A model generated the notes under the pieces. It ran no database searches and was not told the DNA's origin. It worked only from the letters and a program-made list of their open reading frames with translations. Source: Candidatus Poseidoniales archaeon (GTDB taxonomy: Archaea; Thermoplasmatota; Poseidoniia; Poseidoniales; Poseidoniaceae). From it: a stretch of 46,138 nt of DNA. Positions within the stretch are counted from its first letter, which is position 1; each line of letters starts with the position of its first letter. Below are positions 2 to 36,412 of the stretch, piece by piece. Position numbers and translations under genes: made by a program. Location of the stretch: contig QQRW01000038.1 of the NCBI GenBank assembly GCA_003602605.1, forward strand, positions 7,924 through 54,061, written 5' to 3'.

Positions 2-3000
2 GGTTTCGTGAGAGAAGAACACAGTACTCGGAGCCATTGCATGCCGGTCAATACCCCACTGCGATTCCATAGAAGTGATGAAAGAGTCAACCGTTTGTGC
101 GACGTGTTCAACATCGAGTCTTGTACCATGGAATGCAGAGTTAGCGGTCGTGGAACCGAGCAATTCTGCAATTGGTTGGACACCACGTTGCATGGCTTCA
201 GAGTGGCGTTCAACAACGAAAGCCGCTGCACCCATGCCGAGCACCAAACCGTTTCGGCGGCGGTCGAACGGCAAAGCAGCCTCTTCGACAACATTGCCAG
301 TAGCCGCTGCACCGGAGGCAGCAAAGCCTCCCCCAATCCATTCCCAGAGATCTTCGCCAGTCACATCGTCAGCAGAAATGATGACAACGCGGTCGACTCT
401 GTCGCTGTTCAACCAGTCTTCAGCAACGCCAAACGCTGCAGTGGTTGATGCACAGGCGAGGTTGATGGTCGTGTTTGGACCACGAATCCCTGTGTACTGT
501 GCGAATTGTGAATGACCCATATTGAGCGTTTGGAAGAGGTATCGGCGGTCAAATCGCCCTTCGCCGTCATCACCATCGCTCTTGGCGTGTTTCATTGCCA
601 TTTGGAGGCCAGGGAAACAGGAGGCAAACACAATTCCGGTTCGCTCGCGCTGATGTTGAGGAACTTGCCAATTGCGAATCAATCGCAAACCACCTTTGCC
701 GATTTGTTCAACCGGAGTGAGGGGTATGGCTGCATCTCGAAGTGCTAAGAGTCCAGAGGCGACTGCCAGTTGGGTTGTGATGTCCCAAGCAAGAACGACC
801 TTGGCATCGATGCCAAACTCTTCTGCAATGTCAAACGCAGACTTAACACCTGCAAGTTGAGGTATGTCGCCAAACTCCTTGGCTTGTTCCATGTTGACAG
901 AACCATCTCTACCTTTGATGAGGCGAACGATGTTCTTGTCCAGTAAACGTTGCTTGTATTCATCGCTCACTTCCGAAATACATGTCTCGCCGCGCACCAA
1001 GCGTTCGAAAGTATCTTCCTCGAACACACGCTCCCCACCAGGTAGGCCAAGAGAGACGCCGGTTACCACATATGGGTCTGCCTTTCGTCGATCAGTATGT
1101 GTCGGAGAAGCCATGGTTTGAGGGCTCGATTGGGTTGTCGGGGCATGCGACATCGAAGTCTGAGGACTCCATGATGTCGGAAGGGCGGTAATCCATTTTG
1201 CAAGATCTGCAGCCGTGGTAATCGTGGAGGTATCGAGTGAAGCATCAACGGCAGCTTCCGATGAAACGGTGTGAAGAACCGATGCCACTTGTGCATCGCT
1301 CATACCAAGTCCGAGGCGAAGATTGACCATACCGCTACAGAAACGAGCAGGATAACCACTCACTGCTGCAAGGCGATCGCCAAGATAAGCATCCATTGCC
1401 TTGGCAGCAGCCACTGCCGGATCGACGTTTCGTGGAGCTGCAGTATTGACTTGAACGATGTTCTGAACCGGCGCGGAGCCGCCTGTTGAGGGCAGAGGAC
1501 GGGCTCGAGTTCGCAAGTCATCGGCTTGAGCAGTACTGAAAGAAGGAACACTTGAATCACCATAGGCTTCGATTGGTCCAGCTCTAAACGCTTCAGTAAG
1601 CACATGAGAATCTGCAGCAGGCCATTGCGGTTTACGGCCTGCAAGAGCAAGTGTGCCCAACGCACTGAGGAAGGTTGCGATGCCACCTTGCTTTGGATGG
1701 TTGCACATTATTGGCAAATGCGGTTTGTCTTCGAGAATCTGTACGGCAAACATGGTGAGAGCACGCTTTGGACCGACCTCGAGGAAGGCGCGTGCACCTG
1801 CAGCATACATGGTTTCAATTTGAGTGGTCCACTCAACGGCTGATGCCATCTGAGGGGCAAGTTTTCCAAGAACCCCTTCCTTCGAATTATCACCTTCCAT
1901 TGGATAGAAGGTTCCATCGACATTGGCAGTGATTGGAATACGAGGCCAGCGAATTTCAAGACTCTCGAGGAATCTGCGCAGAGGTTCGTTTGCGGGCGCA
2001 ACGATGCGGGAATGGAAAGCGTGCGAGGTTGCAAGAGGTACGGCTTGGAATCCTTTCTCCTCGAATTGAGCCATGGCCTGCTTCACAGGTTCAGTCTCTC
2101 CAGCAATGACCGTCATTTTGGGTGAATTCTTGTTGGCTGCAATAACATAGCCTTCAATCGAATCAAGTACGGACGCAACTTCGTCGTAAGGAGCCATAAT
2201 GCTCGCCATCAAACCTTTGTCTTCGATGACAACGGAGCCCATTTCAGTTCCACGTGCTGCAGATGCTCGCAGTGCTCCATCCATATCTAAGATACCTGCA
2301 GACATGAGTGCTGCGTATTCTCCAAGAGAATGTCCTGCGACCATGTCTGGGTGTTGGCCGTGATCGTTCAGTGCTCGCTCAATGGCCAAATCAGCCGTGA
2401 GCATTGCGGGTTGAGTGTATTCGGTTTGTTTCAGTTTGTGTTCAGCTTCAATCCGTTCTTCCTTGGTCAGGTTTGAGCGTAAAACGAAACTGGACAGCGT
2501 TTCGCCCTCCAAGACATCGACCATCGTCTCATCGGCTTGCTCCCAAACTTTCTGGACGGCGCTGTAGCGTTGATGCAAATCGTGTGTCATGCCAACGTAT
2601 TGACTTCCCTGACCAGGATACATGTGGGCGACTTTCGCCTTTGGATGAAGAGCTGGGTCATTGGTCAACAGGACGCCTTGTGCCTGTAGGAAGCCCCACT
2701 TCTCGGGGTCACTCATGGCTTTGCTTGCAAGTGCTGTACGCTTATGGAACTCAGCCCAAGAAGTCGCAACGATACACATGCGGAAAGCATCCGACTCAGC
2801 ATAATCAGATGATGCTGAATCCAAAGCGGACGACAGACGGAGGCCTCGAGGGTCTTCATCGAAATGCAGACCAGCAAAATCAATCGCTTCTAACTTGGCT
2901 TGAAGTGAGGATAGGTCAGAAGAAGAAAGCAGCAAAATTCCACCTTCTACGGCCTTCATCTGTTCATGTGTCATCGAAGGTTGTGCAGTTGAGTCCAACA

Positions 3001-4540
3001 CCGATGCAGCATCTGATTGAACGGAAGATGATTTTGATTCTTGGGCGTAAGCGGACCAGCGGGAGTCCCACTTCTGAGCGAGTTCAGCGTGGTATTCAGG
3101 TTCAAAACCTTCCAATGCAACGTGATAATTGGTTCCGCCAAAACCGAAAGCAGAAACACCTGCTCGACGAGGGTGATTCACCGGACGAGGCCAGTCTCGT
3201 GCTTCTGTAGGAACAAAGAAAGCGTTGTTATCCCAATCAACAGTCGGATTTGGCGTCTTGAATCCTGCTGAAGGCGGGATTGTACGGTGATGAAGGGACA
3301 TGACGGCTTTGATTAGCCCCGCAATTCCAGCGGCTGCTTTCAAGTGTCCTACTTGAGATTTAATGGAACCAACTGCCACGTGGTCGCCCGCTGGCGAGCC
3401 ATCCCAAAGCAACGAAAGCGTGCCCAATTCGGTAGCGTCTCCGACTTTGGTGGAAGTTCCGTGGGCTTCAATCAATTCGACGGTCGTGACATCGTACTCC
3501 GCCTGTGAATATGCACGAGCAATGGCTTGAATTTGCCCGCGTTGACTTGGAGCAGTAATCCCTTTTCCTCGTCCGTCCGACGAACCGCCTACGCCACGAA
3601 TAACTGCATGAACCTCGTCACCGTCTCGAATGGCATCGGAAAGACGCTTGAGGACAAAAGCACCCGCACCTTCCCCCATTACGAATCCGTTTGCGCCTGC
3701 ATCGAAAGGTGTAGAATGAGTGGGAGAAAGAGCACCGATTGCGCTGAACTTTGCAAAGGTAGGAGCATCCATACTGCGATCGGTAGCTCCAGCAATCATG
3801 ACATCCACTTGACGCATTTGCAAAAGGCGACAAGCGTCCATGAGGGTTGCTAAAGACGAAGCACAGGCGGCATCCATTGCGAAATTAGGGCCTTGTAAGT
3901 CCAAAAGGTTGGAAACTCGACCGGCAACGACATTGGCTAACTCTCCGGGCATCGTGTCTTCATTGACACGGGGTGCACCGGTGTTGATGGCGTCGACAAA
4001 GGCATCTCCGTTAGCTGTTGGCATCCCAAACGACTTGGCTATTTCCTTGGTGTGGTTCGAATAGATTCGAATGTTAGAGAGGTTTCTGTTTTCACCGCCA
4101 AGAGCGTTGGCAAACGCCACTCCAGTACGTAGCCGGTCAATGTCTTTGTTTTCAGCATCGTATCCAGCATGCTCAATTGCTGCTGCTGCAACGGTAACTG
4201 CCCATTGTTGAGCAAGGTCGATTTGAGTGAGCGTACCTGGAGGTTGTTTCCATCGACGCCAATCGAACTCATATCCTTCGACAACTGCACCGATACGTGC
4301 GTAGGTGTAGCCTTCCTCGATGTTTCCTGGACCGCCGTCTCGGAAGAAATGGTCTACAGGTCCGATCCATCGGTGTTCGGGGATTTGACGAATACTGACC
4401 TTGGAATCGAGAATATTCTGCCAAAATGAATCGATGTCTGGTGCATCCGGCATCAGTGCTGAAACCCCAATAACAGCAATCGGTTCAAACGGCCCTTGTT
4501 CAAGTCCCTGGACTTCGTTTCCTTTGGCATCTTTGACCAT
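2..4540 (-). CDS. Type I iterative PKS/FAS (PfaA/HglE-like), 3'-truncated by window edge; domains KS1 (~4490-3110), AT (~2630-1640), degenerate ACP-like (~1400-1190), KS2 (~1075-<1)
   Basis: Manual translation from ATG 4540 (GAGGTGA SD upstream): MVKDAKGNEVQGLEQGPFEPIAVIGVSALMPDA. KS1 motifs DAACASSL (Cys 3863-3865), EAHGTST, GHLKAAAG, SAFGFGGTNYH. AT motifs YPGQGSQ, GHSLG (Ser 2327-2329), HAFHS. KS2 motifs GPNTTINLACAST (Cys 452-454), LPFDRRRNG, FFSHET (His 8-10). All checked motifs are in one frame, and its absence from the ORF track is consistent with no stop before the edge. Confidence 0.95.
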   Translation of the reverse strand, partial: MVKDAKGNEVQGLEQGPFEPIAVIGVSALMPDAPDIDSFWQNILDSKVSIRQIPEHRWIGPVDHFFRDGGPGNIEEGYTYARIGAVVEGYEFDWRRWKQPPGTLTQIDLAQQWAVTVAAAAIEHAGYDAENKDIDRLRTGVAFANALGGENRNLSNIRIYSNHTKEIAKSFGMPTANGDAFVDAINTGAPRVNEDTMPGELANVVAGRVSNLLDLQGPNFAMDAACASSLATLMDACRLLQMRQVDVMIAGATDRSMDAPTFAKFSAIGALSPTHSTPFDAGANGFVMGEGAGAFVLKRLSDAIRDGDEVHAVIRGVGGSSDGRGKGITAPSQRGQIQAIARAYSQAEYDVTTVELIEAHGTSTKVGDATELGTLSLLWDGSPAGDHVAVGSIKSQVGHLKAAAGIAGLIKAVMSLHHRTIPPSAGFKTPNPTVDWDNNAFFVPTEARDWPRPVNHPRRAGVSAFGFGGTNYHVALEGFEPEYHAELAQKWDSRWSAYAQESKSSSVQSDAASVLDSTAQPSMTHEQMKAVEGGILLLSSSDLSSLQAKLEAIDFAGLHFDEDPRGLRLSSALDSASSDYAESDAFRMCIVATSWAEFHKRTALASKAMSDPEKWGFLQAQGVLLTNDPALHPKAKVAHMYPGQGSQYVGMTHDLHQRYSAVQKVWEQADETMVDVLEGETLSSFVLRSNLTKEERIEAEHKLKQTEYTQPAMLTADLAIERALNDHGQHPDMVAGHSLGEYAALMSAGILDMDGALRASAARGTEMGSVVIEDKGLMASIMAPYDEVASVLDSIEGYVIAANKNSPKMTVIAGETEPVKQAMAQFEEKGFQAVPLATSHAFHSRIVAPANEPLRRFLESLEIRWPRIPITANVDGTFYPMEGDNSKEGVLGKLAPQMASAVEWTTQIETMYAAGARAFLEVGPKRALTMFAVQILEDKPHLPIMCNHPKQGGIATFLSALGTLALAGRKPQWPAADSHVLTEAFRAGPIEAYGDSSVPSFSTAQADDLRTRARPLPSTGGSAPVQNIVQVNTAAPRNVDPAVAAAKAMDAYLGDRLAAVSGYPARFCSGMVNLRLGLGMSDAQVASVLHTVSSEAAVDASLDTSTITTAADLAKWITALPTSWSPQTSMSHAPTTQSSPQTMASPTHTDRRKADPYVVTGVSLGLPGGERVFEEDTFERLVRGETCISEVSDEYKQRLLDKNIVRLIKGRDGSVNMEQAKEFGDIPQLAGVKSAFDIAEEFGIDAKVVLAWDITTQLAVASGLLALRDAAIPLTPVEQIGKGGLRLIRNWQVPQHQRERTGIVFASCFPGLQMAMKHAKSDGDDGEGRFDRRYLFQTLNMGHSQFAQYTGIRGPNTTINLACASTTAAFGVAEDWLNSDRVDRVVIISADDVTGEDLWEWIGGGFAASGAAATGNVVEEAALPFDRRRNGLVLGMGAAAFVVERHSEAMQRGVQPIAELLGSTTANSAFHGTRLDVEHVAQTVDSFITSMESQWGIDRHAMAPSTVFFSHET

Positions 4541-4551
4541 ATCATCTCACC

Positions 4552-5346
4552 TCAGTCGTTCATAATGCTCTGCGGCACCATCGTAATCGAATATCCACCA
4601 TCAACATAGATGCATTGCCCAGTGACGCCGCTTGAGAGGGGGCTAGCTAACCACAAGGTTGCACCTGCAACATCCTCTTGGCTGACGTTCCTTCGCAGAG
4701 GCGAGTTGGCTTCGACATGGTCGAGAATATTGTCAAATCCTGGAACGCCGCTCGCAGCGATAGTCCGTATAGGGCCTGAAGAAATTGCATTCACACGGTG
4801 TCCTTCTGGACCAAGGTGGCATGCAAGTTCACGCGTCCAACATTCCAGTGCCGCCTTAGCCATCGACATTATTCCGTAATTTGGAACGAAACGGTTTGAA
4901 GCCGCATAGGTCAACGTGACCGTTGAAGATCCTGGATTGAGATACGGCAGAGCATGCTTCAAACATCGTTGCAATGAATTCGCTGAAATCGTCATTGCTG
5001 TATTAATATCGCTGTCCTCTACAAACAAAATTGGACGGTCAAAGCATGCACGAGGAGCAAAGCCAATCGCGTGAATCAGAATATCTGCCTTCTTGCCGGG
5101 GTGGTCTTTCTCAAACGCCTCAAAGAATTCTCGAGTTGTGGCATCTTCCGCAACATCCAACGGATAAAATCCACCAATCTGTGGCAACTTATCCTTTAGT
5201 TGGAAAATACGGCTCATGAAACGCTTCTGATAACCGAGGTACAGCGTGACACCAGCAGCAGCAAGTTGTTGACAAATGGCCCATGCAATCGAGTCCTCAC
5301 TGGCAACACCGAAGACAAAGGCTATTTTTCCCTGTAATTGTAGCAT
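4552..5346 (-). CDS. fabI: Enoyl-ACP reductase, FabI-type SDR
   Basis: GVASEDSIAWAI, HAIGFAP, catalytic Y-x6-K (YGIMSMAK), RVNAISSGPIRT, VTGQCIYVDGG. Start reassigned to ATG 5346 behind an AGGTG SD. Confidence 0.93.
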   Translation of the reverse strand: MLQLQGKIAFVFGVASEDSIAWAICQQLAAAGVTLYLGYQKRFMSRIFQLKDKLPQIGGFYPLDVAEDATTREFFEAFEKDHPGKKADILIHAIGFAPRACFDRPILFVEDSDINTAMTISANSLQRCLKHALPYLNPGSSTVTLTYAASNRFVPNYGIMSMAKAALECWTRELACHLGPEGHRVNAISSGPIRTIAASGVPGFDNILDHVEANSPLRRNVSQEDVAGATLWLASPLSSGVTGQCIYVDGGYSITMVPQSIMND

Positions 5347-5351
5347 AAAAG

Positions 5352-5391
5352 CACCTACCCAATGGGTAGGTGTTGGCCGTAACACCTATCC
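5352..5391. promoter_or_regulatory. Perfect 21-bp palindrome plus a third complementary arm over the fabI SD (operator or RNA switch)
   Basis: CACCTACCCA-A-TGGGTAGGTG at 5352-5372. AACACCTATCC at 5381-5391 is complementary (1 mismatch) to GGGTAGGTGTT at 5364-5374. Confidence 0.6.
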
Positions 5392-5461
5392 TATGACTGT
5401 TCCCTATGTTGTGTAGGTAAAAACATGGGTTCTGTGACCCTAATTTTTGAGCCGAAGGGCC

Positions 5462-6574
5462 TCACAGGTCATCGAATAAATCATCAAACTCATCATTTGA
5501 TGACGAGCTTTCGTCAAGATCGTCGAAAAGGTCATCGAAATCATCTGCTGATGGTTGCTGAACTGGCTCCTCTGGTAGGATAATGGGTTGTTGAATTTGA
5601 GGCATCTTGTTTTTATTTGGCTTCTTCTTTGTCACCACTCGAATGAGAACGACCAAGAACAAGACAAGTAGGATAGCTCCACCTCCAATCGAAGCGTACA
5701 ACAGCGTGCTATCGGAATTCAAGGAATCGAGCCCATCAATACCTGCATTCTTTGATGGTGCTGTGATATCGAGTTGAATTGTAATTTCACTAAATGGAGC
5801 ATCATCATCATCGCCACTTTGAGCTCGGATGATAAGAGGCATACGCAAATCTTCACTCACGGAAGACGGGGCCCGAATAGACAGTGTTTTCACACCAGAT
5901 GTGCCTTGGTAGGGAACATTCTCATTCACCTTTTTTCCACTCGGGAAAGTAAACTGCGCTGCCTCGAGGTCAGCAGCATTCACGAACAGGACTTCCAACA
6001 AATCGTCGTCATTACCTTTATTGGTCACTTGGAATGAAAACTCAACTTCTTCACTCGTATCCATGTACCGTGTCGAAACATCGGAAAGAAGCAATTCGAC
6101 CATACCGTACGATTCGATAATCAAATCCCCAGAGTATGTCGTGTTAGCGACCCAGGGGCCGTCAGGAAGTTGACCATAAGGAAGATTATTCCAAGACTCG
6201 ACTTTAGCACCAAGTTCAAAGGAATAATCCGTAGAAGCGGGGATTTTAGTTTGTCCAGTGAAAACGACATCAAAGGTGTCTTCTTCACCTGCTGCAAGAG
6301 TGAATGAATCTTCACTAAGTGCCAATTCGACCAAAGTTCCGTCCCATTCAAGCGTTTCCACGCTGATGACTTCACTGGCAGAAGTTGGATTCGTGACTGT
6401 GCACTGGAGTTTCACCTCAGCGTCGGAGGTTGGACGAACATCAAGAACTGGATCAGATGGGCCGCAATCCAATTCAACAGCAGGTATTGGTGAACCTTGG
6501 GCTGAGGCAGGTAGAACAAGACAAGGTGCCAAGAAAAGACCGAATACGAGACAAAGAATCAGACCCTTTCGCAT
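5462..6574 (-). CDS. Secreted, C-terminally membrane-anchored surface protein with beta-sandwich (Ig/CARDB-like) domains and acidic cytoplasmic tail
   Basis: Signal peptide MRKGLILCLVFGLFLAPCLVLPASA (start reassigned to 6574); two xVTNxx..D/E segments; TM YASIGGGAILLVLFLVVLI followed by KKKPNKNK; acidic tail. Confidence 0.8.
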   Translation of the reverse strand: MRKGLILCLVFGLFLAPCLVLPASAQGSPIPAVELDCGPSDPVLDVRPTSDAEVKLQCTVTNPTSASEVISVETLEWDGTLVELALSEDSFTLAAGEEDTFDVVFTGQTKIPASTDYSFELGAKVESWNNLPYGQLPDGPWVANTTYSGDLIIESYGMVELLLSDVSTRYMDTSEEVEFSFQVTNKGNDDDLLEVLFVNAADLEAAQFTFPSGKKVNENVPYQGTSGVKTLSIRAPSSVSEDLRMPLIIRAQSGDDDDAPFSEITIQLDITAPSKNAGIDGLDSLNSDSTLLYASIGGGAILLVLFLVVLIRVVTKKKPNKNKMPQIQQPIILPEEPVQQPSADDFDDLFDDLDESSSSNDEFDDLFDDL

Positions 6575-7597: not shown

Positions 7598-8146
7598 TTA
7601 AACCTGCTCAGCAAAGTAATTCTTGTCGGTGAATTGGTCTCTCCAATAGACTGCTGCCATGGCGACCATGTTGCTGTGACGAGCGTTCGTAACAACGCAT
7701 CGCCCGTTCGGCCAAACTTTGAGTGTGAGGTTGTGCCGTGAATCCTCAAGAACACTGCAACCGAGTCTTTCGTCATAGATTGCGGTGCCTGCTCCAATAT
7801 CACCAACAATTTGAGTGATGTTCAAAGGAACTCCAAAATCAAACGACGCAATCACTGGGCCGAGTTCTGTTTCGAGTCCTGCGTCGCTGAGCCCAAGTCG
7901 GAGCATGAGTTCTTTTGCTGCGGCTCGCGCTGCATCAACACGCTGCGTCCCGTGAACGGTCACACGACCTTCACGATCGATAACCAGAGTTGCGCGTGGA
8001 CGGTCGAGGACTTTGATGACAACTCCACCGGTCTCCTGCCCACCGAGTTGTGAGACAACATCCTGTTGGTTGATAGGGGAGGGTGGAACGAAGCGAACAA
8101 GTTGGTTTTCAATACGAACTTCAATGGCTGCACCGGGCATAATCAT
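7598..8146 (-). CDS. Divergent TATA-box-binding-protein (TBP)-fold protein
   Basis: 182 aa with two repeats matching TBP spacing: EVRIEN...DRPRATLVIDREGRVTVHGTQRVDAARAA and VIASFDFGVPLNITQI...IYDERLG...LTLKVWPNGRCVVTNAR. ATGA overlap with the upstream gene. Confidence 0.7.
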   Translation of the reverse strand: MIMPGAAIEVRIENQLVRFVPPSPINQQDVVSQLGGQETGGVVIKVLDRPRATLVIDREGRVTVHGTQRVDAARAAAKELMLRLGLSDAGLETELGPVIASFDFGVPLNITQIVGDIGAGTAIYDERLGCSVLEDSRHNLTLKVWPNGRCVVTNARHSNMVAMAAVYWRDQFTDKNYFAEQV

Positions 8147-8964: not shown

Positions 8965-11900
8965 TGGTTGTTGACCCAATCTTGCAGCGCCTCAATGCTC
9001 CATCCTTGGTCAAAGTAACCTTGGATTTCATCTTGAGTCCATTGCGGGAATTGTTCCATTGCTCGGGCCATCTCAGGCGAGACGTTCGCTGCGGGTGCAG
9101 GTGGACCAGAAACTGGCGTCGATTGGCCAGGTAACTCTGCATACGCTTTGTCATCCTCATCTTCGTATTCATCGTAAATATCACCATCGCCTCCACGACG
9201 AATCAAGACGACAACAAGTGTTCCAAGGACTGCAACAGCGATACCCAAGATAGCAAGAACAAGCATAAATCCACCGGAATCACCCGAATCACTCTGAACT
9301 TTGACATTGAACGATTCACCCTGGGATGAACCGTTGTACAGCAGTTCTCCAGTCGTATTGTCGGAGATGAGATAGTACATTCCAGTCGTTGCTAAAGTGA
9401 ATTGCTGCAAGTCAACCTTCACCCACTGCGATGCACCAACCGGGATATCTCCTGTGTCGATGCTTGCTTCGAGTACAGGGACTCCGCCGTTGATGACGGA
9501 GCGAATGTTCAACACAGTTGAACCGTCAAGCGTTCCAGTGTTGAGAACTTCAATTTCAAGTTCAATGTCTTCACCGACTTCGGGTTTAGCTGGACTAATT
9601 CGGACATTTTTAACATCGAACGAGGCTTCCTCGAAAATCAGCTCATAACTGGATTTATGAGTTGGGTTGCTTGAGAAGATTGGAGCAATACCGCCTTCAT
9701 CCGTAAGACCGCCACCAAGCATGGCTTGGGTTCCAGCCGAATCGGTTGCATCAATCCAGAAAACAACTTCGACACCGTCAATTTGGTCTTCATCTGGGTC
9801 GGTCTGTCCCTCTGTAATTGGCCAAAGATCAACACATTCTGCCGAAGCGAAATACGATCCACCACTAGGGTTGAGGGTGAGTTCTTGAGTCATCGGCATA
9901 TCACCGAAGGTTGCTCGGTAAACTGGCCATGTGATGTTGTTTGTTGAGTCGGAGAAGAAACTCCAGGCAACAGAAACATCTCCTTGGAACAGTGCTTCCT
10001 GCTCTTGGATAACGACTTCAACATCGACACAGTGGTATGTTGAGGTTGGGAGAACATTCGCCAATGGCTCTTGGTTTCCGTCTTTCAATGTCCATGTGTT
10101 CGAAACGACGAGAGGTGCAGAAGCATCGACCCTCAAATTGAAGGTTTGACATCCGTATGCTTCTGAAACACAAATTGCGGACGATGTATCAACTGCACCC
10201 ATTGGTAAGCCTTCGATTCCGCCGCCACACTCTCCGTTTGCTCCACCGTCACCACCAGTTGCATCGTAAGGACACAATCGGAACGTGTAGGTGTAATCAT
10301 TAGTTACCGGTGGTGCTGTGATATTGATATCAAAGACACCTCCGGTAAACGAATGGTATGTTACTTCTCCAGGGAAGGCAATGTAACCTTTGGAACCATC
10401 CATAGCAGCAGCCTGCCGTGTCAATTCAAGCGTCAATTCAATCTCTGGAGTGATGTAGACTTGGTCGAGGATTCCGTCAAGGTAAGCGTATTGTCCTTCA
10501 AACGAAATGATATCGCCTGGGTAAACGAAGCCCTTTCGAACGTCTTGAGTAATTGGAGTCATCAAATCACTGAAGACCGGTGAAATCATCAAATCATTCG
10601 CAGAATCTGCACGGAAATCAAGTTGAATTCCGTCGCTGTAGTACCAATCTTGAATGTGACGTCCGGAAGCTGGTAACATTCTGTATCGAGGGTTGTCAAG
10701 GTCCTGCATGTAGAGAACTGGGTTGTTGATCGAGGTTGTAGCACCTGGCAAACCCCAAGTCATTCGGATTGGGAGATCAAGATAGAATTCTGTTTCGAAC
10801 GGATCAATCAACACACCGCCATCCATGCGAAGGACCCGTGGGCCCTCAACATCACCGTCTTCAGCAATGATTTCGATGTATGGACTGTTTGTCCATGCCG
10901 TGTTGTTACGGGGGTAATAGTAGACTGTCATGTCGTCTCGGTCGTCAGCCATGTCGACACGGAAGTAATCTACGTCTCTCCATCCGTTGTCGTCCTTTGC
11001 CTCCACGATGAGATGGTACACGTTACCGGCGTACATGGTGTGATTCCACTTGCCGTTGTATTGCTGTTGGTTCGATTTGAGGAAGCGATTATCTTGTGAA
11101 TCATCGATAAAGAAGTTTCGAATGACTGGAGATTTCGAACTCATAGAAACATAGGTGAAATGGTCGTTCTCGAATCCAGGAGCACCACCGTCAATTGGGT
11201 TTCCTGCCTTGTCAAACCCTTCAATCCAAATGCTGACCTTACCCACTGGGTCTTGTCCAACGTTTGCATAGTCGTTATAGGTCGCAGTATAATTCGCAAA
11301 CGGAGCCTCACCATCGCTGTAAGCGGTTACTGTGATGTATTCTGATTCTTCTGCAAGTCCGTTAGAGTTCGCATCGTGATCGTACTCAACCCAAACCTTG
11401 ATGTCGAGCGATTCTGGGGGGTTGGGTAGGTCACTGGCACTCATTCGAATCTGTTGTGTAGCAGAAGGAACAACCCATGTGTCGTCAACCATCACTCGCC
11501 AGTTGCTGTCAAGCGCTGGGTCGACTTGGCCGTTCAAAATTTCGACCTCAAGCAAATTCGGATCCAGCGTGTCAATCGAAAGATTGAACGGGATTGCACA
11601 CTCACTGTCAGGCCGGAATTCAGCCGCAGGACAGAGCGTCTCTCCGCCCTCGTAGCCGTCGATTCGGAATCTGTATGTGTCTTGACCAGCAGCCATACCG
11701 AGGTCAACATCCCAAGAGAAATCTCCACCTGGTAGACCGGAGCGGTTCGCAACAGAAATCCATTCAATCGAGATGTTGCCATCGGTGTTGTTGACATACT
11801 TTTGTTCGAGGACCATGAAATAGCCACTCGGGTCTGGTGAAATGGAGAGGTCTTGGAGTCGGATAGCCCCGTTGAGGGTGACCGTTTGTCCAGAAGTTCC

Positions 11901-14852
11901 GTCATCAAGGTCTTGGACAATTCCGATGTTGTTGAGGACTTCAAACGAAGTAACGACAGCGTCGTTTTCAACAGCGTTACCACCGGTAGGAGCTAGAAGG
12001 ACTGCATCCGGAAGCCCATTGACGCCGTTGGACGCAATTGAACCTGAGTAGATTCGAACTTCATCGGTATCCTCCCACTCAGAATTTACGACAAAGCGCC
12101 ATGTGATTTCCTTTCCATCTGCGATTGTCGTAGCAGTCGAAGATTCAAGGGTGATCAAATCTCCAATGTCGGAAACCTCAGAGAACAGCAAAGCATCGCT
12201 GTAACCAAGAATAACATTACCAGTCTCGGATTCGAAGGTCAAACGGGCTTCAACGAGAGTGGAGCCAGTCAGAGGGCTCACAGTGTGAGTAGTCGTGATT
12301 TCGTAGATGGCTCCGTTTGGATACAATCCGACCGGATTTCCAACCAAACTAATCGAGTTATCGTAGCCACTCGAGGTTGAAACCATGAGATTTGATAATG
12401 CTGCGCCTCCACCTGTAGAGCTTGTGAAAGTCATTGGTACTTCGGCTGTAGAGCCACCGTCCCACAAGGCAACGCCCTTGTTCAACTCACGATCAAAGCC
12501 GTCCGCAGTGCCGAGTGAAACGGTGTAATTGTAAACAATATCGAGGTCGCGAACCGTCACTTGAGACGAAGTTGAAGCGTTTGGCGATTCTGCTTTCAAT
12601 CGGAAGGTCTGCCATTCGGTACCGTAAGCGTCGTAATGACTGACAGGAACCAAAGCATTACCGAGCAAAGAGTTCAGTGCTGATTTGAAATCAAGGTTTG
12701 GTGCGTTAGCGAGCAACAGAAGCGTCGTGTTCTCGACACTGCCCAAAACAACTTCCTGTGTACCAGAGAGAAGAGACAATTCGAACCCTTCGGTTGAATC
12801 AGTATTCGAGAAAATTCCCATTTGGTCAAAGACCAAATCAACTGAAGTAACTTCTGCCCCCTTTGGTAGCATGAACATTGCACCTTCGGCAACACCAGTG
12901 CTGTCGATGATGAGGTCAGAGGATGACTTACCGTAATTAACTCCATCAACCTTAGCCTTCAAGAATTGAGTTTGGCGCCCGAAACCTCCGAACGCCTCTT
13001 CATCGAATCCCCAGTCAATGTGTCCATCATTGGCGACATCCAACTGGATATCATCGGGGTGGTGGCCAAACGTAAGGTCAAACCAAATGCCCCCAACATT
13101 ACATGGGTCCTCAAAGGAAACCATAGAGTCGAAACCGAACACTGGTTCATCCAAGATATATTCGACACCGTTGGAGAGTTGGTAAAACGAGGCACCTCCT
13201 TGAGAGAAAACCTCAATCGTTGGGGCTTCAGTACAATCTTTCTCGACATACGGCTTAATGCGGGTAATCGGTCGATCGAAATCGCTTCGTTGGAGCGTTG
13301 GCGTATACGATGTATCGCTGATAATCGGTGTATACGTCAAAAACTCACCAGCCCCGGTTGTTGACCAGACACCCTGGAAAATGTTCGGTATCTCGTCGTA
13401 ATAGGAGGCGTTCAATCCCGTACCAACCCGAGTACCAATACTGAATCCGTGGAACACCGGAGATGAAAGTCGGTCGGGTCCCGAATTGAATGTGAATCTA
13501 AAGTCGATCGAAGGGTGTTCGGTCGAATTGATGCCCCACAATTCGATGATTTCTCCTTGAAGGTTGGTCATTGCATCACCTTGTCGGTCATGAACGATTG
13601 AACCGGTAGACGAGTCAAGCACATCAACTGAAATCGTTGCTGTGCTGGTTGTTTCAGTTTCAAGTGCTAGAATACCGTATCCGTTCGGCTGGTTCGGGCC
13701 ACCTGAGTTTGATGGCAGGAATCCGTTAATGCTCATGTTTGCAGATGCTGGAAGAGGGTCTCCAACTCGGAAGTTATCGACATACCAACCGGCTTTGCCA
13801 CCATCGGTGCCAAGGACATCATTGTCTTCCATGACAAAGCGTATCTGAACATATTGTCCCGTGTATGGACCCAAATCTACGGCAATGTTTGCCCAACCGT
13901 TCGGGTTACCAGCAGTCGTTGAAGTGCCGCCAAGTGCCCCGTCTCCAGGGGTTACGCCATTGCATCTCGAGTCAATCTGGCCAGCCGTGTTTTGGTTGGT
14001 GGATACGGTATAGTATCCTGTGCCCCAGCTCAATGATGAATTGGAAAGACTGATTTCCAAGTAATCAAATCCGTTCGGGTCGTTGACATCGAGGTCATCG
14101 TTTTGAGAGGAGCGTATTTCGAGGTATGCACAGTCACGGAAGTAAACCGATGGGTTGGTTCCGCTGCTGGTGCCAAGGTCCAAGTCGTGCCATGAGTCAA
14201 AGTAAGCGAGGGAACTCTTGAGTGAAGAGTCGATGAAAATTGTTTCAGATGTCATCATGTATTTGCGGCCGTTTGCTCCAGCGTTCTTACTGGTGTAGTC
14301 ATCGTCATAGAGCCCAGTGCCCCAGCAATATGTGCCGCTCGCACAGTCGGGAATATCGATGTTCGGCGCAAGAGTGGTTGGGTCAATAGAACCATGATCC
14401 CATCCGTGAGTATCACCGGTCAAAGCGCGATGGTCAACGAAACCGGAAGAAGTTTCTTCAAAGTCGGTAAGGAAGCCTTCAGACTTCAATTCGACTGGAA
14501 CTGCATTTGAACCGTCCTCGTAAACGAAATCAGCGACGTTCGAGAACTTTGTCAGTTGATTGTTGTACATAGGATTCCATACACGAGGCATGGTGTCCAA
14601 GTCAATACGTGTGTGCGCAGAGTGTTCAAGCATCGAAGTCGAAAGATCGACCGATGCACTGGTCACTGTTTCTGAAGCTGGAAGGTGAACAAAACCCTCG
14701 TCAATAAACGGGCTCCCATCTCTCAATTCGATTTCATCGGTTGCGTTTCCGCCTCCAAACGTGGACACGTTTGCTGCTGCAGCAAACGGTGCCAAGAGCA
14801 TTAAGAAAACTAGGAAAAATGCTGATTTAAGTTGTTGATTGTCGTTCGTCAA
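8961..14852 (-). CDS. Giant (1963 aa) secreted membrane-anchored surface protein with M6/MAM-like jelly-roll insert and C-terminal CARDB-like domain
   Basis: TTG start with AGGTGA SD; signal peptide; QYVQIRF...AGWYVDNFRVG; DANSNG loop; ISPAKPEVGEDIELEIEVLNTG; TM GFMLVLAILGIAVAVLGTLVVVLI-RR; Trp-rich tail. Confidence 0.88.
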   Translation of the reverse strand: MTNDNQQLKSAFFLVFLMLLAPFAAAANVSTFGGGNATDEIELRDGSPFIDEGFVHLPASETVTSASVDLSTSMLEHSAHTRIDLDTMPRVWNPMYNNQLTKFSNVADFVYEDGSNAVPVELKSEGFLTDFEETSSGFVDHRALTGDTHGWDHGSIDPTTLAPNIDIPDCASGTYCWGTGLYDDDYTSKNAGANGRKYMMTSETIFIDSSLKSSLAYFDSWHDLDLGTSSGTNPSVYFRDCAYLEIRSSQNDDLDVNDPNGFDYLEISLSNSSLSWGTGYYTVSTNQNTAGQIDSRCNGVTPGDGALGGTSTTAGNPNGWANIAVDLGPYTGQYVQIRFVMEDNDVLGTDGGKAGWYVDNFRVGDPLPASANMSINGFLPSNSGGPNQPNGYGILALETETTSTATISVDVLDSSTGSIVHDRQGDAMTNLQGEIIELWGINSTEHPSIDFRFTFNSGPDRLSSPVFHGFSIGTRVGTGLNASYYDEIPNIFQGVWSTTGAGEFLTYTPIISDTSYTPTLQRSDFDRPITRIKPYVEKDCTEAPTIEVFSQGGASFYQLSNGVEYILDEPVFGFDSMVSFEDPCNVGGIWFDLTFGHHPDDIQLDVANDGHIDWGFDEEAFGGFGRQTQFLKAKVDGVNYGKSSSDLIIDSTGVAEGAMFMLPKGAEVTSVDLVFDQMGIFSNTDSTEGFELSLLSGTQEVVLGSVENTTLLLLANAPNLDFKSALNSLLGNALVPVSHYDAYGTEWQTFRLKAESPNASTSSQVTVRDLDIVYNYTVSLGTADGFDRELNKGVALWDGGSTAEVPMTFTSSTGGGAALSNLMVSTSSGYDNSISLVGNPVGLYPNGAIYEITTTHTVSPLTGSTLVEARLTFESETGNVILGYSDALLFSEVSDIGDLITLESSTATTIADGKEITWRFVVNSEWEDTDEVRIYSGSIASNGVNGLPDAVLLAPTGGNAVENDAVVTSFEVLNNIGIVQDLDDGTSGQTVTLNGAIRLQDLSISPDPSGYFMVLEQKYVNNTDGNISIEWISVANRSGLPGGDFSWDVDLGMAAGQDTYRFRIDGYEGGETLCPAAEFRPDSECAIPFNLSIDTLDPNLLEVEILNGQVDPALDSNWRVMVDDTWVVPSATQQIRMSASDLPNPPESLDIKVWVEYDHDANSNGLAEESEYITVTAYSDGEAPFANYTATYNDYANVGQDPVGKVSIWIEGFDKAGNPIDGGAPGFENDHFTYVSMSSKSPVIRNFFIDDSQDNRFLKSNQQQYNGKWNHTMYAGNVYHLIVEAKDDNGWRDVDYFRVDMADDRDDMTVYYYPRNNTAWTNSPYIEIIAEDGDVEGPRVLRMDGGVLIDPFETEFYLDLPIRMTWGLPGATTSINNPVLYMQDLDNPRYRMLPASGRHIQDWYYSDGIQLDFRADSANDLMISPVFSDLMTPITQDVRKGFVYPGDIISFEGQYAYLDGILDQVYITPEIELTLELTRQAAAMDGSKGYIAFPGEVTYHSFTGGVFDINITAPPVTNDYTYTFRLCPYDATGGDGGANGECGGGIEGLPMGAVDTSSAICVSEAYGCQTFNLRVDASAPLVVSNTWTLKDGNQEPLANVLPTSTYHCVDVEVVIQEQEALFQGDVSVAWSFFSDSTNNITWPVYRATFGDMPMTQELTLNPSGGSYFASAECVDLWPITEGQTDPDEDQIDGVEVVFWIDATDSAGTQAMLGGGLTDEGGIAPIFSSNPTHKSSYELIFEEASFDVKNVRISPAKPEVGEDIELEIEVLNTGTLDGSTVLNIRSVINGGVPVLEASIDTGDIPVGASQWVKVDLQQFTLATTGMYYLISDNTTGELLYNGSSQGESFNVKVQSDSGDSGGFMLVLAILGIAVAVLGTLVVVLIRRGGDGDIYDEYEDEDDKAYAELPGQSTPVSGPPAPAANVSPEMARAMEQFPQWTQDEIQGYFDQGWSIEALQDWVNNQ

Positions 14853-15714: not shown

Positions 15715-16176
15715 ATGGAACCTTACTCAAAGGAGCCCGCTACGCTGATTGAACACGTTTTCCCCGGAGACACCAACGCCTACGACACTCTGTTTGGTGG
15801 AAAATTACTCTCACTCATGGATAAAGCCGGGGGAATTGCCTGTGCTAAATTCGCACACAGAGAGTTCGTCACGATATCGATCGATGCGTTGACGTTTATC
15901 GCTCCTGCCCGGCAAGGAGATCTGCTCGAAGTTACCGGAAAAGTAGTGTTCACAAGCAGTCATACGGCATGCACCAAAGTGACGGCAGTCGCCGTCAACA
16001 AAGCAACTTGGGAGAAAAAGAAAATTTGTGAAGGGTTCTTCTTTTTCGTTGCGATTGACTCGATGATGCGACCGATTCCAATCCCTCAATTCGTCGTAGA
16101 ACAAGACGATGAGCAAGATGATTGGGAACATGCCAAAAACATTCGAGAGCAGATGTTGGCGAATCGGAACAAGTGA
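15715..16176 (+). CDS. Acyl-CoA thioesterase (YciA-like hotdog fold)
   Basis: VFPGDTNAYDTLFGGKLLSLMD, FVTISID, FVAID. Confidence 0.92.
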   Translation: MEPYSKEPATLIEHVFPGDTNAYDTLFGGKLLSLMDKAGGIACAKFAHREFVTISIDALTFIAPARQGDLLEVTGKVVFTSSHTACTKVTAVAVNKATWEKKKICEGFFFFVAIDSMMRPIPIPQFVVEQDDEQDDWEHAKNIREQMLANRNK

Positions 16177-19972: not shown

Positions 19973-21313
19973 TTATCCAAGCAACTCTTCATGCATGTCA
20001 ATGTATTGAATCGTGATGTCCCGGTTGAGGAAGTCCTCTTCATCCATTATACGCCGGTGAAGCGGAATCAGGTGTTCAACACCGGAAATAACCGTTTCAT
20101 CAAGAGCAGTTCGCATGCGTTTGACTGCATCATCGCGATCTCGACCCCAAACCAAAAGCTTGGCCAACAGCGAGTCAAAGCAACCTGGCATTTCGTAACC
20201 AGGGTGAGCGTGCGTATCGACACGAACTCCATATCCGGATGGGAAATGACATTCCCAAAGGCGACCTGGGCTGGGAATAAATTTACGAGGATCTTCGGCG
20301 TTCAATCGACATTGAATCGCGTGACCGTGCCATACAATCTCCTCCTGCTGTAGAGGAAGTTCTTCGCCTTGAGCAACGCGTATTCCTAGTTCCACAAGAT
20401 TATGGCCGGTGATGAGTTCAGTAACGGTGTGTTCCACCTGTACTCGAGGATTCACTTCCAAGAAGTAAAAATCCCCGTTCGAATCACGTAGGAACTCAAA
20501 AGTGGCTAAGCCTTTGTAACCCACCGATTCAGCACCCTTGCAAACCAAAGCTCCGATTTCTTCACGCTTCGCCTCGTCCAACCAAGGTCCTTCTTCGACC
20601 AGTTTTTGATGGCGGCGTTGAATCGAACAGAAACGTTCTCCGAAATGAATTGCTTTCTTGCCGTCACCTAAGACTTGGAATTCAACGTGCTGCGCACCTT
20701 GAATGTACTTCTCTACGAAAACTCGCTCATCGCCGAAAGCAGACCGTGCACGGGATTGGCACAGTTTGAGGGCGTTTTCAAACTCGTCGGATTTCTCGAC
20801 GATTTGCATACCAATGCCACCTCCGCCTGCAGCTGCCTTGATAATGACTGGATAACCGATGTCTTCAGCGAGTGCGGATGCCACAGCTGCATCAGAAATC
20901 GGCTCGGAAGAACCCTTAGCGGTTGGAAGGCCTGCAGCCTCCATTGCTGCACGAGCCTCGATTTTATCGCCAAGAAGCGTGATGACATCAGCCGACGGAC
21001 CGATGAACGTGATACCCTCTTCTTGCAATCGGCGGACAAATGTAGCGTTTTCAGCAAGGAAGCCGTATCCAGGGTGAACAGCGTCACAGCCCATCTCTTT
21101 TGCGGCATGAATAACCGATTCGATGTCGAGATAAGTATCCAAAGGATTCGCCTTGTAATTCGCATACGCCACATCAGCGAAACGAACTGGCAGAGAAAGG
21201 CGGTCTTCTCGGCCGTGAATAATCGCAGCCTCAATGCCCATGTCACGTAGAGTTCGGAGAATTCGAAGAGCTATTTCACCGCGGTTCGCAATGAGTACAC
21301 GCTTGAATGCCAT
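19973..21313 (-). CDS. Biotin carboxylase subunit (acetyl/propionyl-CoA or pyruvate carboxylase type)
   Basis: VLIANRGEIA, HPGYGFLAEN, KAAAGGGGIG, CSIQRRHQK, FLEVNPRVQVEH, RLNAEDP, DSLLAKL. Confidence 0.96.
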   Translation of the reverse strand: MAFKRVLIANRGEIALRILRTLRDMGIEAAIIHGREDRLSLPVRFADVAYANYKANPLDTYLDIESVIHAAKEMGCDAVHPGYGFLAENATFVRRLQEEGITFIGPSADVITLLGDKIEARAAMEAAGLPTAKGSSEPISDAAVASALAEDIGYPVIIKAAAGGGGIGMQIVEKSDEFENALKLCQSRARSAFGDERVFVEKYIQGAQHVEFQVLGDGKKAIHFGERFCSIQRRHQKLVEEGPWLDEAKREEIGALVCKGAESVGYKGLATFEFLRDSNGDFYFLEVNPRVQVEHTVTELITGHNLVELGIRVAQGEELPLQQEEIVWHGHAIQCRLNAEDPRKFIPSPGRLWECHFPSGYGVRVDTHAHPGYEMPGCFDSLLAKLLVWGRDRDDAVKRMRTALDETVISGVEHLIPLHRRIMDEEDFLNRDITIQYIDMHEELLG

Positions 21314-21992: not shown

Positions 21993-23243
21993 TCAGTAAA
22001 CGTCGCGCAAGTAACGCTTCTCTTCTCGCATCATGGTCGTGCCAATGAAGTGTGTTGCGTCGTCTTCCGACATTCCACCGTGTTCCATGGCGATTTCAAT
22101 GAGTGCTCGATGAACGTCTTTAGCCATGTAGGTCTTGTCGCCACAGATGTAGAAGTAAGCACCGTTTTCAAACCATTCCCAAATGTCAGCGCCATGTTCT
22201 TTGAGGCGGTGTTGAACGTAGATTTTCTCTTCTTGGTCGCGTGACCATGCAGTTGTGAATTTGTACAAATCTCCACTGTCCATCCATCCTTCAATCTGTT
22301 CCTTATAGTAAAACTCAGTTTTAGCAGATTGGTCGCCGAAGAACAACCAATTTCGGCCTTTACCACCATCAAAAACCCGTTGTTCCATGAACGCTCTAAA
22401 TGGAGCGATACCGGTTCCAGGTCCAACCATGATGATGTCAACATCTTTGTCCTCTGGAAGGATGAAAGACTTGGTAGGAGACATGAATACGCCGATTGGT
22501 TTGCCGGTAGTATCAATTTCATCGGCCAGATATTGAGTGCAAAGACCACCGCGAGGGCGATTGTGGTATTCGAATCGAACAATACCTACGGTTAGTTCAA
22601 CAAATCCAGGGTGTGCGTCGTGAGAGGAAGCGATCGAGTAGAGTCGAGGTTTGAGACGAGCAACCAAGTCGAGGAACTCCTCGGGAGAGTACTTAACACC
22701 AAACTCTCGCATGATGTCAACATAGTCACGGGTCCAAAGGTAGTTTTCAATTTCTTTTTCGTCTCCGAGAAGAGCCTCTACCCTTGCAGCTGGATCGTCG
22801 GATGCTTTGCTGGTGGCAAGTCCGGGAGGAGTGGCTGAAGAATCAGAAGATTCCCAATCCTCGCTTGAACGGCTACGAGCCACAATTTTCAAAGAAATTT
22901 TCATTCCGGATGAGACGACTTTTCCGGCAAGGGATTGAACAAACTTCTTGTTCGCCATGTGGACCTCAAAATCCTTCTTGAGAGCAGTGTACAAGTCGCG
23001 CTCTCCGTTGTGAGTCTCTACAATGTAATCTCTATCCCAGCCTTGAAGTTCAAGAATCTCCTCAACGATGTGAGGGGGATTTTCAGACATGACACCGAGG
23101 GCATCACCGACCTTGTAGTCAAGGCCAGAGTCCCCGAGTGCAAAGACAATGTGACGGGTCTCTTTACGAGAACCCTCCCCGTTGAGAATATAATTCTCGG
23201 TTATTTCAGTCATGTAAGGATTCTTTGCGCTCCAATCGGACAT
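21993..23243 (-). CDS. CysJ/CPR-like FAD/NAD(P)H oxidoreductase lacking the flavodoxin domain
   Basis: KETRHI, YKVGDALGV, PRLYSIASS, GGLCT, IMVGPGTGIAPFR, LFFG, AWSR..KIYVQ, YICGD, RYLRDVY. GGTGA SD before ATG 23243. Confidence 0.9.
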   Translation of the reverse strand: MSDWSAKNPYMTEITENYILNGEGSRKETRHIVFALGDSGLDYKVGDALGVMSENPPHIVEEILELQGWDRDYIVETHNGERDLYTALKKDFEVHMANKKFVQSLAGKVVSSGMKISLKIVARSRSSEDWESSDSSATPPGLATSKASDDPAARVEALLGDEKEIENYLWTRDYVDIMREFGVKYSPEEFLDLVARLKPRLYSIASSHDAHPGFVELTVGIVRFEYHNRPRGGLCTQYLADEIDTTGKPIGVFMSPTKSFILPEDKDVDIIMVGPGTGIAPFRAFMEQRVFDGGKGRNWLFFGDQSAKTEFYYKEQIEGWMDSGDLYKFTTAWSRDQEEKIYVQHRLKEHGADIWEWFENGAYFYICGDKTYMAKDVHRALIEIAMEHGGMSEDDATHFIGTTMMREEKRYLRDVY

Positions 23244-23412
23244 AATATCACCCACCAACCCAAGGCTGTAGTTGGTCCACAATGGGGACACTTATCATGC
23301 TTATTGAGCGATGTTGATGCCGATTCGCACGGCGTCACAGGACCCTCAAAAACCTTCACAATTTTCAAGGATGCAAACGGCCATTTATATGGTAAACCTC
23401 TTACTTGACTGT

Positions 23413-35617: not shown

Positions 35618-35775
35618 GCCACGGTGTACGAGTAATAGCGTTTAGAAATGCCGCCATTAAGTCACTGCGTCAAAGAAAAATGTTGAGATTCGGCAATCGT
35701 AAAAATCTCAAAATCAAAGGTTTTCATGAGAAAACTGCGAACTTGATAAGTAAGGTGGCCTCTCTTGCTTGGATG

Positions 35776-36402: not shown

Positions 36403-36412
36403 GGTGAAGGCA

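Follow-up and report, generated by a model that had tools for sequence, protein, structure and literature searches.

A fabI-synthase-phosphopantetheinyl transferase cassette of Poseidoniales archaea as a candidate iterative fatty-acyl synthase

Organization of the cassette

The left end of a 46,138-nt stretch of DNA from a Candidatus Poseidoniales archaeon (assembly GCA_003602605.1, contig QQRW01000038.1), hereafter called the window, carries part of a cassette of fabI, a gene for a 3056-aa multidomain synthase, and a gene for an Sfp-type phosphopantetheinyl transferase (PPTase). Open reading frame (ORF) calls and Pfam searches placed the three genes in this order, all on the minus strand. The window (G000:C32:7924-54061) belongs to a 90.7-kb contig; the genome measures 2.02 Mb and has a completeness of 86%. 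The synthase gene runs past the left edge of the window, beyond which lies the PPTase gene. We hold with moderate confidence that the three genes form an operon of this Poseidoniales (Marine Group II) archaeon and that the cassette encodes an iterative fatty-acyl synthase, in which FabI serves in trans as the enoyl reductase (ER).

The synthase contains, from its N-terminus, a first ketosynthase (KS1), an acyltransferase (AT), a degenerate stretch resembling an acyl carrier protein (ACP), a second ketosynthase (KS2), four ACPs, a ketoreductase (KR) and a dehydratase (DH) of the polyketide synthase (PKS) type. The whole gene spans L002:3293-12463 (minus strand) and ends at contig position C32:3293; the features within the window are listed in Table 1. 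KS1 matched the ketoacyl-synt and Ketoacyl-synt_C models with 224.8 and 117.9 bits, and its translation contains the motifs AMDAACASS, EAHGTSTKVGD and SQVGHLKAAAG. The AT carries VAGHSLGEYAA and ATSHAFHSR; the HAFH motif denotes malonyl specificity of ATs. The ACP-like stretch showed a weak similarity to ACP1 (BLASTP E 8e-4, 22% identity over 64 aa) and no Pfam match; in some homologs, a true ACP occupies the corresponding place. In KS2, the Cys lies in LACAS and the first His in SHET, and the second His (TGHPMG) is located left of the window. The PDB structures closest to KS2 are those of FabF (e.g., 4ddo, 92.4 bits), with which its Cys, His, Lys and His align, and these residues were invariant in all 14 aligned family members. 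Farther left are the four ACPs (PF00550, 106.4 bits in four stretches, L002:6029-7273), the KR (85.8 bits; motifs GGGSGVT and YSAAN legible) and the DH (PKS_DH_N/PS-DH; motif HSIEGVPYHP). The best curated model for the whole protein was PfaA (TIGR02813), whose score of 911.9 bits falls short of the cut-off of 1010.1.

The product of fabI matched PF13561 with 236.8 bits. Its full-length alignment with Thermus FabI (1ulu) scored 191.7 bits and brings the catalytic Tyr, Tyr and Lys into register (LTYaaS...nYgiMsmAKAALE). It thus combines the PF13561 short-chain dehydrogenase/reductase fold with Tyr-x6-Lys and the upstream Tyr, and we file it as a putative divergent member of the FabI family. The sequence at the junction with the synthase gene reads ...aacgac TGA ggtgagatgat ATG, and a Shine-Dalgarno-like GAGGTGA overlaps the fabI stop codon. 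At the other end of the synthase, the PPTase matched PF01648 with 33.3 bits (cut-off 25) and 4PPT_N (PF17837) with 27.0 bits, exactly at the cut-off of 27. The ACPS domain and the N-terminal 4PPT_N half that define the Sfp type are both present; no NCBIfam model matched.

These results agree with the first-pass annotation of the window, which had read an intact KS set (DAACAS, HGTST, GHLK) and an AT with GHSLG and HAFH from the letters, had placed FabI 11 bp upstream with its stop codon overlapping the synthase Shine-Dalgarno sequence, and had described the surrounding genes as archaeal; the translation, Pfam, the junction sequence, and genes for TATA-binding protein (TBP, PF00352) and the Holliday-junction resolvase Hjc on the same contig bore out these points. 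It had also looked to the sequence left of the window for ACP, KR, DH and PPTase, and Pfam searches found all of them there.

Sequences related to the cassette also occur in RNA libraries. Among at least 21 runs, the RNA runs contained small shares (0.05-0.07) of the words of the query. In four marine metatranscriptome runs from four studies, contigs about 90% identical to the locus covered 25-30 of the 30 bins of the 11.1-kb operon. The FabI/synthase junction was bridged in three runs, by X6 record 32 (L002 11012-13498), X1 record 7 (11649-13092) and X3 record 23 (12230-12921), and the synthase/PPTase junction by X1 record 2 (2680-6409), X6 record 25 (2410-4414) and X16 record 9 (2410-3592). 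These contigs come from relatives and indicate the presence of the sequence, not its strand, its level or a single transcript.

Distribution and history of the cassette

In a first draw of relatives, the N-terminus of the synthase was matched in 30 of 41 genomes. Loci were fetched from 12 relatives in three families, and fabI was located directly upstream of the synthase gene in every one of them, a recurrence well beyond chance; tblastn placed the PPTase downstream in nine of the 12, and a family search found PF01648 just past the end of the synthase in G033 and G027. We then counted the genes in 151 Poseidoniales genomes that were at least 80% complete. KS2 was present in 101 of them, namely, the genome studied here, 74/74 of family f1, 2/2 of f2 and 24/74 of f3 (the raw count was 102; G160, with 82.9 bits and 28% identity, was dropped). 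FabI was found in 102 genomes (f1 73/74, f2 2/2, f3 26/74), and PF01648 was found in 100, always as a single copy and in the same genera as the synthase. All three were missing from six genera (g5, 0/10; g7, 0/12; g8, 0/7; g10, 0/9; g21, 0/7; g22, 0/3), whose listed genomes are small (1.2-1.6 Mb). A comparison of coordinates by hand placed FabI on the same contig as KS2, 4-5 kb away, in 92 of the 101 genomes and on another contig in eight; it was not found in G113. The synteny check across Poseidoniales that had been proposed for the pairing therefore came out in favor of its conservation. The cassette was also present in genomes of only 1-10 contigs (G009, G016, G020 and G041).

Across 301 genomes of the phylum Thermoplasmatota, KS2 was detected in 103 and FabI in 80; all 80 were among the 103, and FabI was detected in none of the other 198. 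Both occurred together in families f1, f3, f9 (8/8), f28 (13/13), f32, f33 and f46. Counted by family, seven had both, approximately four had the synthase only, none had FabI only, and more than 30 had neither. FabI was again directly upstream of the synthase in f9 (L114), with agreeing coordinates in G201, G238 and G263, and in f28 it was located on contigs other than that of the synthase. Most of the fetched Thermoplasmatota loci from outside Poseidoniales comprised a carboxyltransferase (CT), the synthase (often fused to a PPTase), and then biotin carboxylase (BC) and biotin carboxyl carrier protein (BCCP).

A search of 1.84 billion representative proteins with KS2 gave 8032 matches at E<=0.001, 2401 at E<=1e-10 and 523 at E<=1e-30. 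Domain mapping of the best 150 matches revealed mostly KS1-AT-KS2-ACPn-KR-DH or fragments thereof. Scanning 185,579 species genomes with a pattern based on an alignment of KS2 fragments confirmed at least 591 loci among at least 600 stretches, and we examined the best 80. Of these, five belonged to Asgard archaea (Heimdall-, Hod- and Promethearchaeota), one to Thermoplasmatota and one to an unclassified archaeon, and 73 were bacterial, including Actinomycetota, Acidobacteriota, Myxococcota, Calditrichota and Pseudomonadota. The bacterial relatives share a conserved cluster of four genes. It opens with a gene of the acyl-CoA dehydrogenase family (ACAD), which immediately precedes the synthase in 63 of the 73 loci; the remaining 10 end without upstream DNA. 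The synthase in the bacterial loci L033-L107 is usually followed by a fused BC-BCCP-CT acetyl-CoA carboxylase (ACC) of approximately 1850 aa and then by a PPTase. No FabI homolog was found near any of these 80 non-Poseidoniales loci, the best of the at least 591. The Asgard loci (L029-L032 and L048) have a CT upstream and an alpha/beta hydrolase, BCCP and BC downstream; the hydrolase may serve to release the product. In several of the Asgard and other Thermoplasmatota clusters (L029-L032, L048 and L108-L118), the PPTase forms the C-terminal part of the synthase; among the Asgard loci, these are L029, L031 and L048.

A KS2 tree (IQ-TREE in 'quick' mode, 97 rows) was built from the best 80 of the at least 591 loci together with the Poseidoniales sequences; it was rooted on KS1 of the query, which forms a very long outgroup branch, and this root yields no donor or direction of transfer. 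All 73 bacterial rows fell into a single clade (SH-aLRT 97). A second clade (100) united the 13 Poseidoniales rows with four representatives and has a substructure that follows f1, f2 and f3, and the five Asgard rows formed a third (100). Poseidoniales and Asgard grouped weakly (84), and the other Thermoplasmatota row fell outside both. On this tree, the Poseidoniales synthase is not nested in any sampled bacterial group, and within the order it seems to have been inherited vertically and lost from some genera.

That the locus is an artefact of assembly or was recently inserted from a bacterium, as opposed to being an archaeal trait, might be suspected from the bacterial look of the domain types and from the general view that archaea lack ACP-dependent fatty-acid synthase (FAS). 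However, the gene order is identical in the 12 fetched loci, the cassette also occurs in the assemblies of few contigs mentioned above, G+C varies little across the window (0.465-0.526), the contig also carries TBP and Hjc, and the Poseidoniales KS2 clade reflects the families and is separate from the one formed by the bacteria. We therefore reject this explanation as hardly credible. The first-pass annotation had named a chimeric junction and a bacterial contig as possible pitfalls; with even G+C and the synthase in every genome of the same family, neither applied. The nearest named homologs in a search with the KS2 part of the synthase came from 'Poseidonia sp.', 'Ca. Poseidoniales archaeon' and 'Ca. 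Poseidoniaceae archaeon', and their product names were only generic.

Carrier threonine, genomic partners and proposed cycle

All four ACPs read LGIDTVKQAE; that is, GIDT stands in place of the GxDS with the canonical attachment Ser of PF00550, and in an alignment with 5y08 the Thr takes the place of the attachment Ser in both PigH ACPs. Among the synthases of the 12 relatives, 10 had GIDT and two had GIDS (L016 and L019). In 72 named ACP-containing loci (L028-L107, from at least ten phyla of bacteria and archaea), 240 of 242 ACP domains had GxDT, and the two with GxDS belong to one Heimdallarchaeum locus. GxDS outnumbered GxDT in six rows of the best 150 representatives, and the additional Thermoplasmatota loci had mostly GxDT and occasionally GxDS.

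One explanation of this replacement is that the Thr-ACPs are not phosphopantetheinylated, in which case the synthase would work without the arm (e.g., on CoA thioesters) or be crippled and FabI would belong to another pathway. The loss of the canonical Ser from all four ACPs agrees with it, and our limited literature search for Thr as a phosphopantetheine site turned up nothing relevant. We nevertheless judge it very unlikely: the Thr is family-wide, it swaps with Ser within Poseidoniales and within one Heimdallarchaeum, the PPTase always accompanies the synthase, to the point of fusion with it in Asgard and other Thermoplasmatota, and FabI was never found without the synthase in the 301 genomes. 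Because the Thr is family-wide, interchanges with Ser and has a PPTase alongside, it is probably a working attachment site. The presence of ACPs and a PPTase, on which the first-pass annotation had made its proposal depend, is established, and their function is predicted with Thr in place of Ser.

The possible partners of the cassette were sought by family searches of the 86%-complete genome, in which a negative means 'not found' and is no proof of absence. PP-binding domains were found only in the four ACPs of the synthase, PF01648 only in the gene adjoining it, and strong KS matches only in KS1 and KS2; four other KS matches were short and partial (16-29 bits). The searches did not find FabA/FabZ (PF07977), PfaD-type nitronate monooxygenase (PF03060), a PF00975 thioesterase, PlsY or the glycerol-1-phosphate (G1P) dehydrogenase family PF13685. 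The discrete AcpP, FabF/B and FabZ/A genes of a type II FAS were likewise not found, although no search aimed at FabH, FabD or FabG was made. The cassette therefore appears to be the only visible route to fatty acyl chains in this genome. Present were three PF01553 (PlsC-type) acyltransferases, a GpsA-type glycerol-3-phosphate (G3P) dehydrogenase, and three CTs, one of them farther along this contig, beyond the window (C32:68802-70235). A BC (NF006367, 556.2 bits, under the cut-off of 597) is located approximately 15 kb from the operon, and together with the CT of the same contig it could supply malonyl-CoA.

Candidate partners were also compared across the 70 genomes of the order that were at least 90% complete, including those of synthase-free genera. 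The PlsC family as a whole was rejected as a co-occurring partner, because all 70 genomes carry PF01553. Full-length orthologs of one paralog of 537 aa, the C27-type (G000:C27:8471-10081; L026:1393-3006), were found only in synthase-bearing genera, and the synthase-free genera had only a distant paralog. As a lead, the C27-type acyltransferase may be the enzyme that off-loads acyl-ACP.

We propose the following cycle. The PPTase would arm the four tandem ACPs, with attachment on Thr, and the AT would load malonyl units, for which biotin-dependent carboxylases with genes at other sites of the genome would provide. KS1 and KS2 would condense these units, perhaps over different ranges of chain length, and the beta-carbon would be processed by the KR and the DH. 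The enoyl-ACP would then be reduced in trans by the separately encoded FabI, a step that the ACAD-like gene appears to serve in the bacterial relatives, and a largely saturated fatty acyl chain would remain on the ACP. Since no thioesterase was found, a PlsC-family acyltransferase would most likely release the chain by passing it directly to a lipid based on G3P. The data themselves show the gene content, the intact domains, their conservation and co-occurrence, and the presence of the sequence in RNA libraries; each catalytic step, the modification of Thr, the chain length, the release route and the destination of the lipid are what we infer. Because the synthase has KS, AT, ACP, KR and DH and no ER domain, a trans-acting ER is the missing part of a full cycle. 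FabI may fill this role, since it is closely coupled to the synthase in translation, occupies the slot of the bacterial ACAD gene, shares both the occurrence and the losses of the synthase, and was never found without it in the phylum. The lack of a FabA-type DH makes cis-polyunsaturated products unlikely; the simplest product would be a chain that is largely saturated.

Several observations weigh against this proposal. All NCBIfam equivalog cut-offs for FabI were missed (best, NF005615 with 225.1 bits against 391). In 23 of the 103 synthase-bearing Thermoplasmatota genomes FabI was missing, namely, in f18 (synthase 15/15, FabI 0/15), f27 (3/3 and 0/3), f35 and one fragmented f1 genome, so FabI is not obligatory for the synthase family; moreover, related genomes are not independent, and the co-occurrence counts therefore overstate the number of independent events. 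A Ser-to-Thr change in E. coli ACP blocks modification by AcpS, and Thr is present at the attachment position of all four ACPs here, so that these may need a special PPTase or work differently. The synthase has no thioesterase domain, and the PF00975 search of the genome found no release enzyme. A 4HBT hotdog thioesterase approximately 10 kb from the operon was considered for this role and rejected; it was found in 70/70 genomes regardless of the synthase and is thus not discriminating. The C27-type acyltransferase is missing from four synthase-bearing genera (g15, g18, g2 and g6) and so tracks the synthase in part. The RNA-library contigs could partly derive from carried-over DNA and are no proof that the operon is transcribed as one unit. 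Finally, the role of FabI as a trans-ER, the product and any role in the membrane are predictions from genomics.

The same genes might instead make a specialized 'secondary lipid' or polyketide (a long-chain polyene, a hydrocarbon precursor, or a surface or signaling lipid) and not bulk membrane fatty acids, with FabI acting in only some of the cycles. This is possible, although we consider it rather unlikely. The accessible text of PMC3098273 files the family under 'secondary lipid' synthases, whose products are unknown and possibly diverse; the six streamlined Poseidoniales genera without the cassette indicate that it is dispensable within the order, and tandem ACPs and a PKS-type DH are typical of specialized systems of the polyunsaturated fatty acid (PUFA) and Hgl kind, in line with PfaA as the best model. 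On the other hand, the presence of the synthase throughout f1 better fits core metabolism, no other ACP/KS system was found in the genome, no tailoring, cyclizing or FabA-type isomerizing genes are located nearby, and PlsC-type acyltransferases and GpsA are present. An iterative fatty-acyl synthase with FabI as its trans-ER thus remains the reading that we favor.

The other genes of the window are included in Table 1. The CysJ-like, phytoene-desaturase-family and succinate dehydrogenase genes between 21993 and 29134 are ordinary content for an aerobic heterotroph. The gene with a DisA-type diadenylate-cyclase (DAC) domain hints at c-di-AMP signaling in this archaeon. Three ORFs are very large, and a tRNA scan of the window found none.

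Table 1. Features of the cassette and other genes of the window (window positions, unless preceded by L002, a locus record that includes DNA left of the window)
Feature	Position	Strand	Remarks
FabI-family enoyl-ACP reductase	4552..5346	-	ATG start at 5346 likelier than upstream GTG at 5385, which gives 277 aa
Gap from fabI stop (TGA 4552-4554) to synthase ATG (4540)	4541..4551	-	11 nt, read directly
Synthase, N-terminal part, aa 1-1513 of 3056	2..4540	-	ORF open at 3' end in window
KS1, PfaA-like, aa 19-489	3074..4486	-	PF00109, PF02801, PF16197; DAACAS/HGTST/GHLK = Cys/His/His
AT, aa 640-968	1637..2623	-	PF00698 (Acyl_transf_1) 121.4 bits; TIGR00128 FabD 210.3 bits
Degenerate ACP-like stretch, ~aa 1061-1122	1175..1360	-	GMSD in place of GIDT
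KS2, FabF-like, ~aa 1185-1650 (in window, aa 1185-1513)	2..988	-	PF00109 37.8 bits on windowed part
Sfp-type PPTase, 261 aa	L002:2530-3315	-	Overlaps synthase stop codon
ORF, 418 aa	5462-6718	-	Directly upstream of fabI; no Pfam match; signal-like N-terminus, C-terminal hydrophobic segment, acidic tail
TBP	7598-8146		
ORF, 278 aa	8143-8979	-	No Pfam match
ORF, 1963 aa	8961-14852	-	Probably a surface protein; hydrophobic N-terminal stretch, membrane-anchor-like C-terminal segment
4HBT hotdog thioesterase	15715-16176	+	
BC	19973-21313	-	
CysJ-like flavoprotein	21993-23291		
Phytoene-desaturase-family gene	23311-25023		TIGR02734 483.7 bits
SdhA/SdhB succinate dehydrogenase	26514-29134		
ORF, 1750 aa	30365-35617	-	
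Macro-domain gene, then DAC-domain gene	35680-37261	+	DAC domain 38.7 bits
Hjc	39345-40028		
ORF, >1240 aa	42417-46136	+	

Relation to described systems and significance

The synthase family has an entry in the catalog of Shulse and Allen 2011 (PMC3098273), the accessible text of which describes a 'Type R' secondary lipid cluster of Acidobacteria, Elusimicrobia and Chloroflexi with an unknown product. Type R consists of one pfaA homolog, KS-MAT-'CLF'-ACP(3-6)-KR, followed by a PPTase gene, with an ACC gene between them in Koribacter. The archaeal cassette has the same plan, with KS1-AT-KS2-ACPx4-KR-DH and a downstream PPTase. The kinship extends to sequence: KS2 retrieves loci of the same architecture from Korobacteraceae, Sulfotelmatobacter and Bryobacteraceae (the type strains of the paper were left out), and the Korobacteraceae locus L107 and many Acidobacteriota belong to the sequence family of the window synthase. 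The domain termed 'CLF' in that text has an intact Cys/His/Lys/His set here and in 14/14 members, and it is therefore a second KS. The bacterial clusters have the ACAD gene upstream and the fused ACC downstream, whereas the Poseidoniales cassette has FabI upstream and no ACC. The ACP Thr goes unmentioned in the accessible text of PMC3098273, which lists only bacteria and in which the word 'archaea' occurs 0 times.

PfaA (TIGR02813) shares with the archaeal synthase the order KS-MAT-tandem ACP-KR-DH and an associated Sfp-type PPTase. In contrast to PfaA, the archaeal protein has an extra KS between the AT and the ACPs and Thr for Ser in the ACPs, and no PfaB or PfaC partner, FabA-type DH or PfaD ER was found in the 86%-complete genome, where searches for PF07977 (FabA-type DH of PfaC) and PF03060 (PfaD) gave no match. 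Because the PfaA score is below the cut-off, a KS is added, the Pfa partners were not found and the ACPs carry Thr, a PUFA product is unlikely. FabI shares PF13561 and the catalytic Tyr, Tyr and Lys with its counterparts in bacterial type II FAS (Thermus 1ulu and E. coli 1qsg), but it is the partner of a type I megasynthase and not of discrete FabF/G/Z and AcpP.

A survey of biosynthetic gene clusters from Shark Bay (PMC7472256) includes, in its accessible part, a PKS cluster in a Heimdallarchaeota metagenome-assembled genome, the KS of which was nearest to the PUFA type. Our Asgard loci (L029-L032 and L048) belong to the family of the window synthase; that part of the survey gives neither architecture nor partners, and the Asgard clusters we fetched have no adjacent FabI. 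Word look-ups confined to the main text of three studies (Rinke 2019, Tully 2019 and Damashek 2021) did not find the synthase, and two PKS survey papers leave archaea unmentioned. We found no literature report of the Poseidoniales cassette, the FabI partner, the archaeal distribution or the Thr carrier site, and these are, as far as our search extends, what is new here. The designation 'undescribed' in the first-pass annotation accordingly stands for the FabI-synthase pairing, of which we found no characterization, and falls for the synthase family, which is already cataloged as Type R.

In the surface ocean, few archaea are as abundant as those of Marine Group II, and to our knowledge none has been cultured. 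Genomic studies of the group, as far as their accessible texts extend (Rinke 2019; Besseling 2020), reported no G1P dehydrogenase, together with G3P dehydrogenase and PlsC-like genes, from which the idea of a 'mixed membrane' arose. The cassette would be an obvious candidate for the source of the acyl chains in such mixed or bacterial-type lipids. A broader view is that archaea own an old lineage of ACP-dependent FAS, KS-AT-KS-ACPn-KR-DH with phosphopantetheine on Thr, which is common to Poseidoniales, other families of Thermoplasmatota and Asgard and stands apart from the bacterial KS2 clade, and that Marine Group II uses it with FabI for ester-linked or mixed membranes; we regard this view as speculative and improbable as a whole.

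The origin of the acyl chains is the missing piece of the mixed-membrane idea, and the three-gene cassette, which is present in every sampled member of f1 and has been lost as a unit in streamlined genera, offers a concrete and testable source. The near-universal Thr of its ACPs may, if not already known, be of interest to enzymologists of FAS and PKS, and the occurrence of the same synthase family in Asgard and other Thermoplasmatota bears on the debate over the lipid divide.

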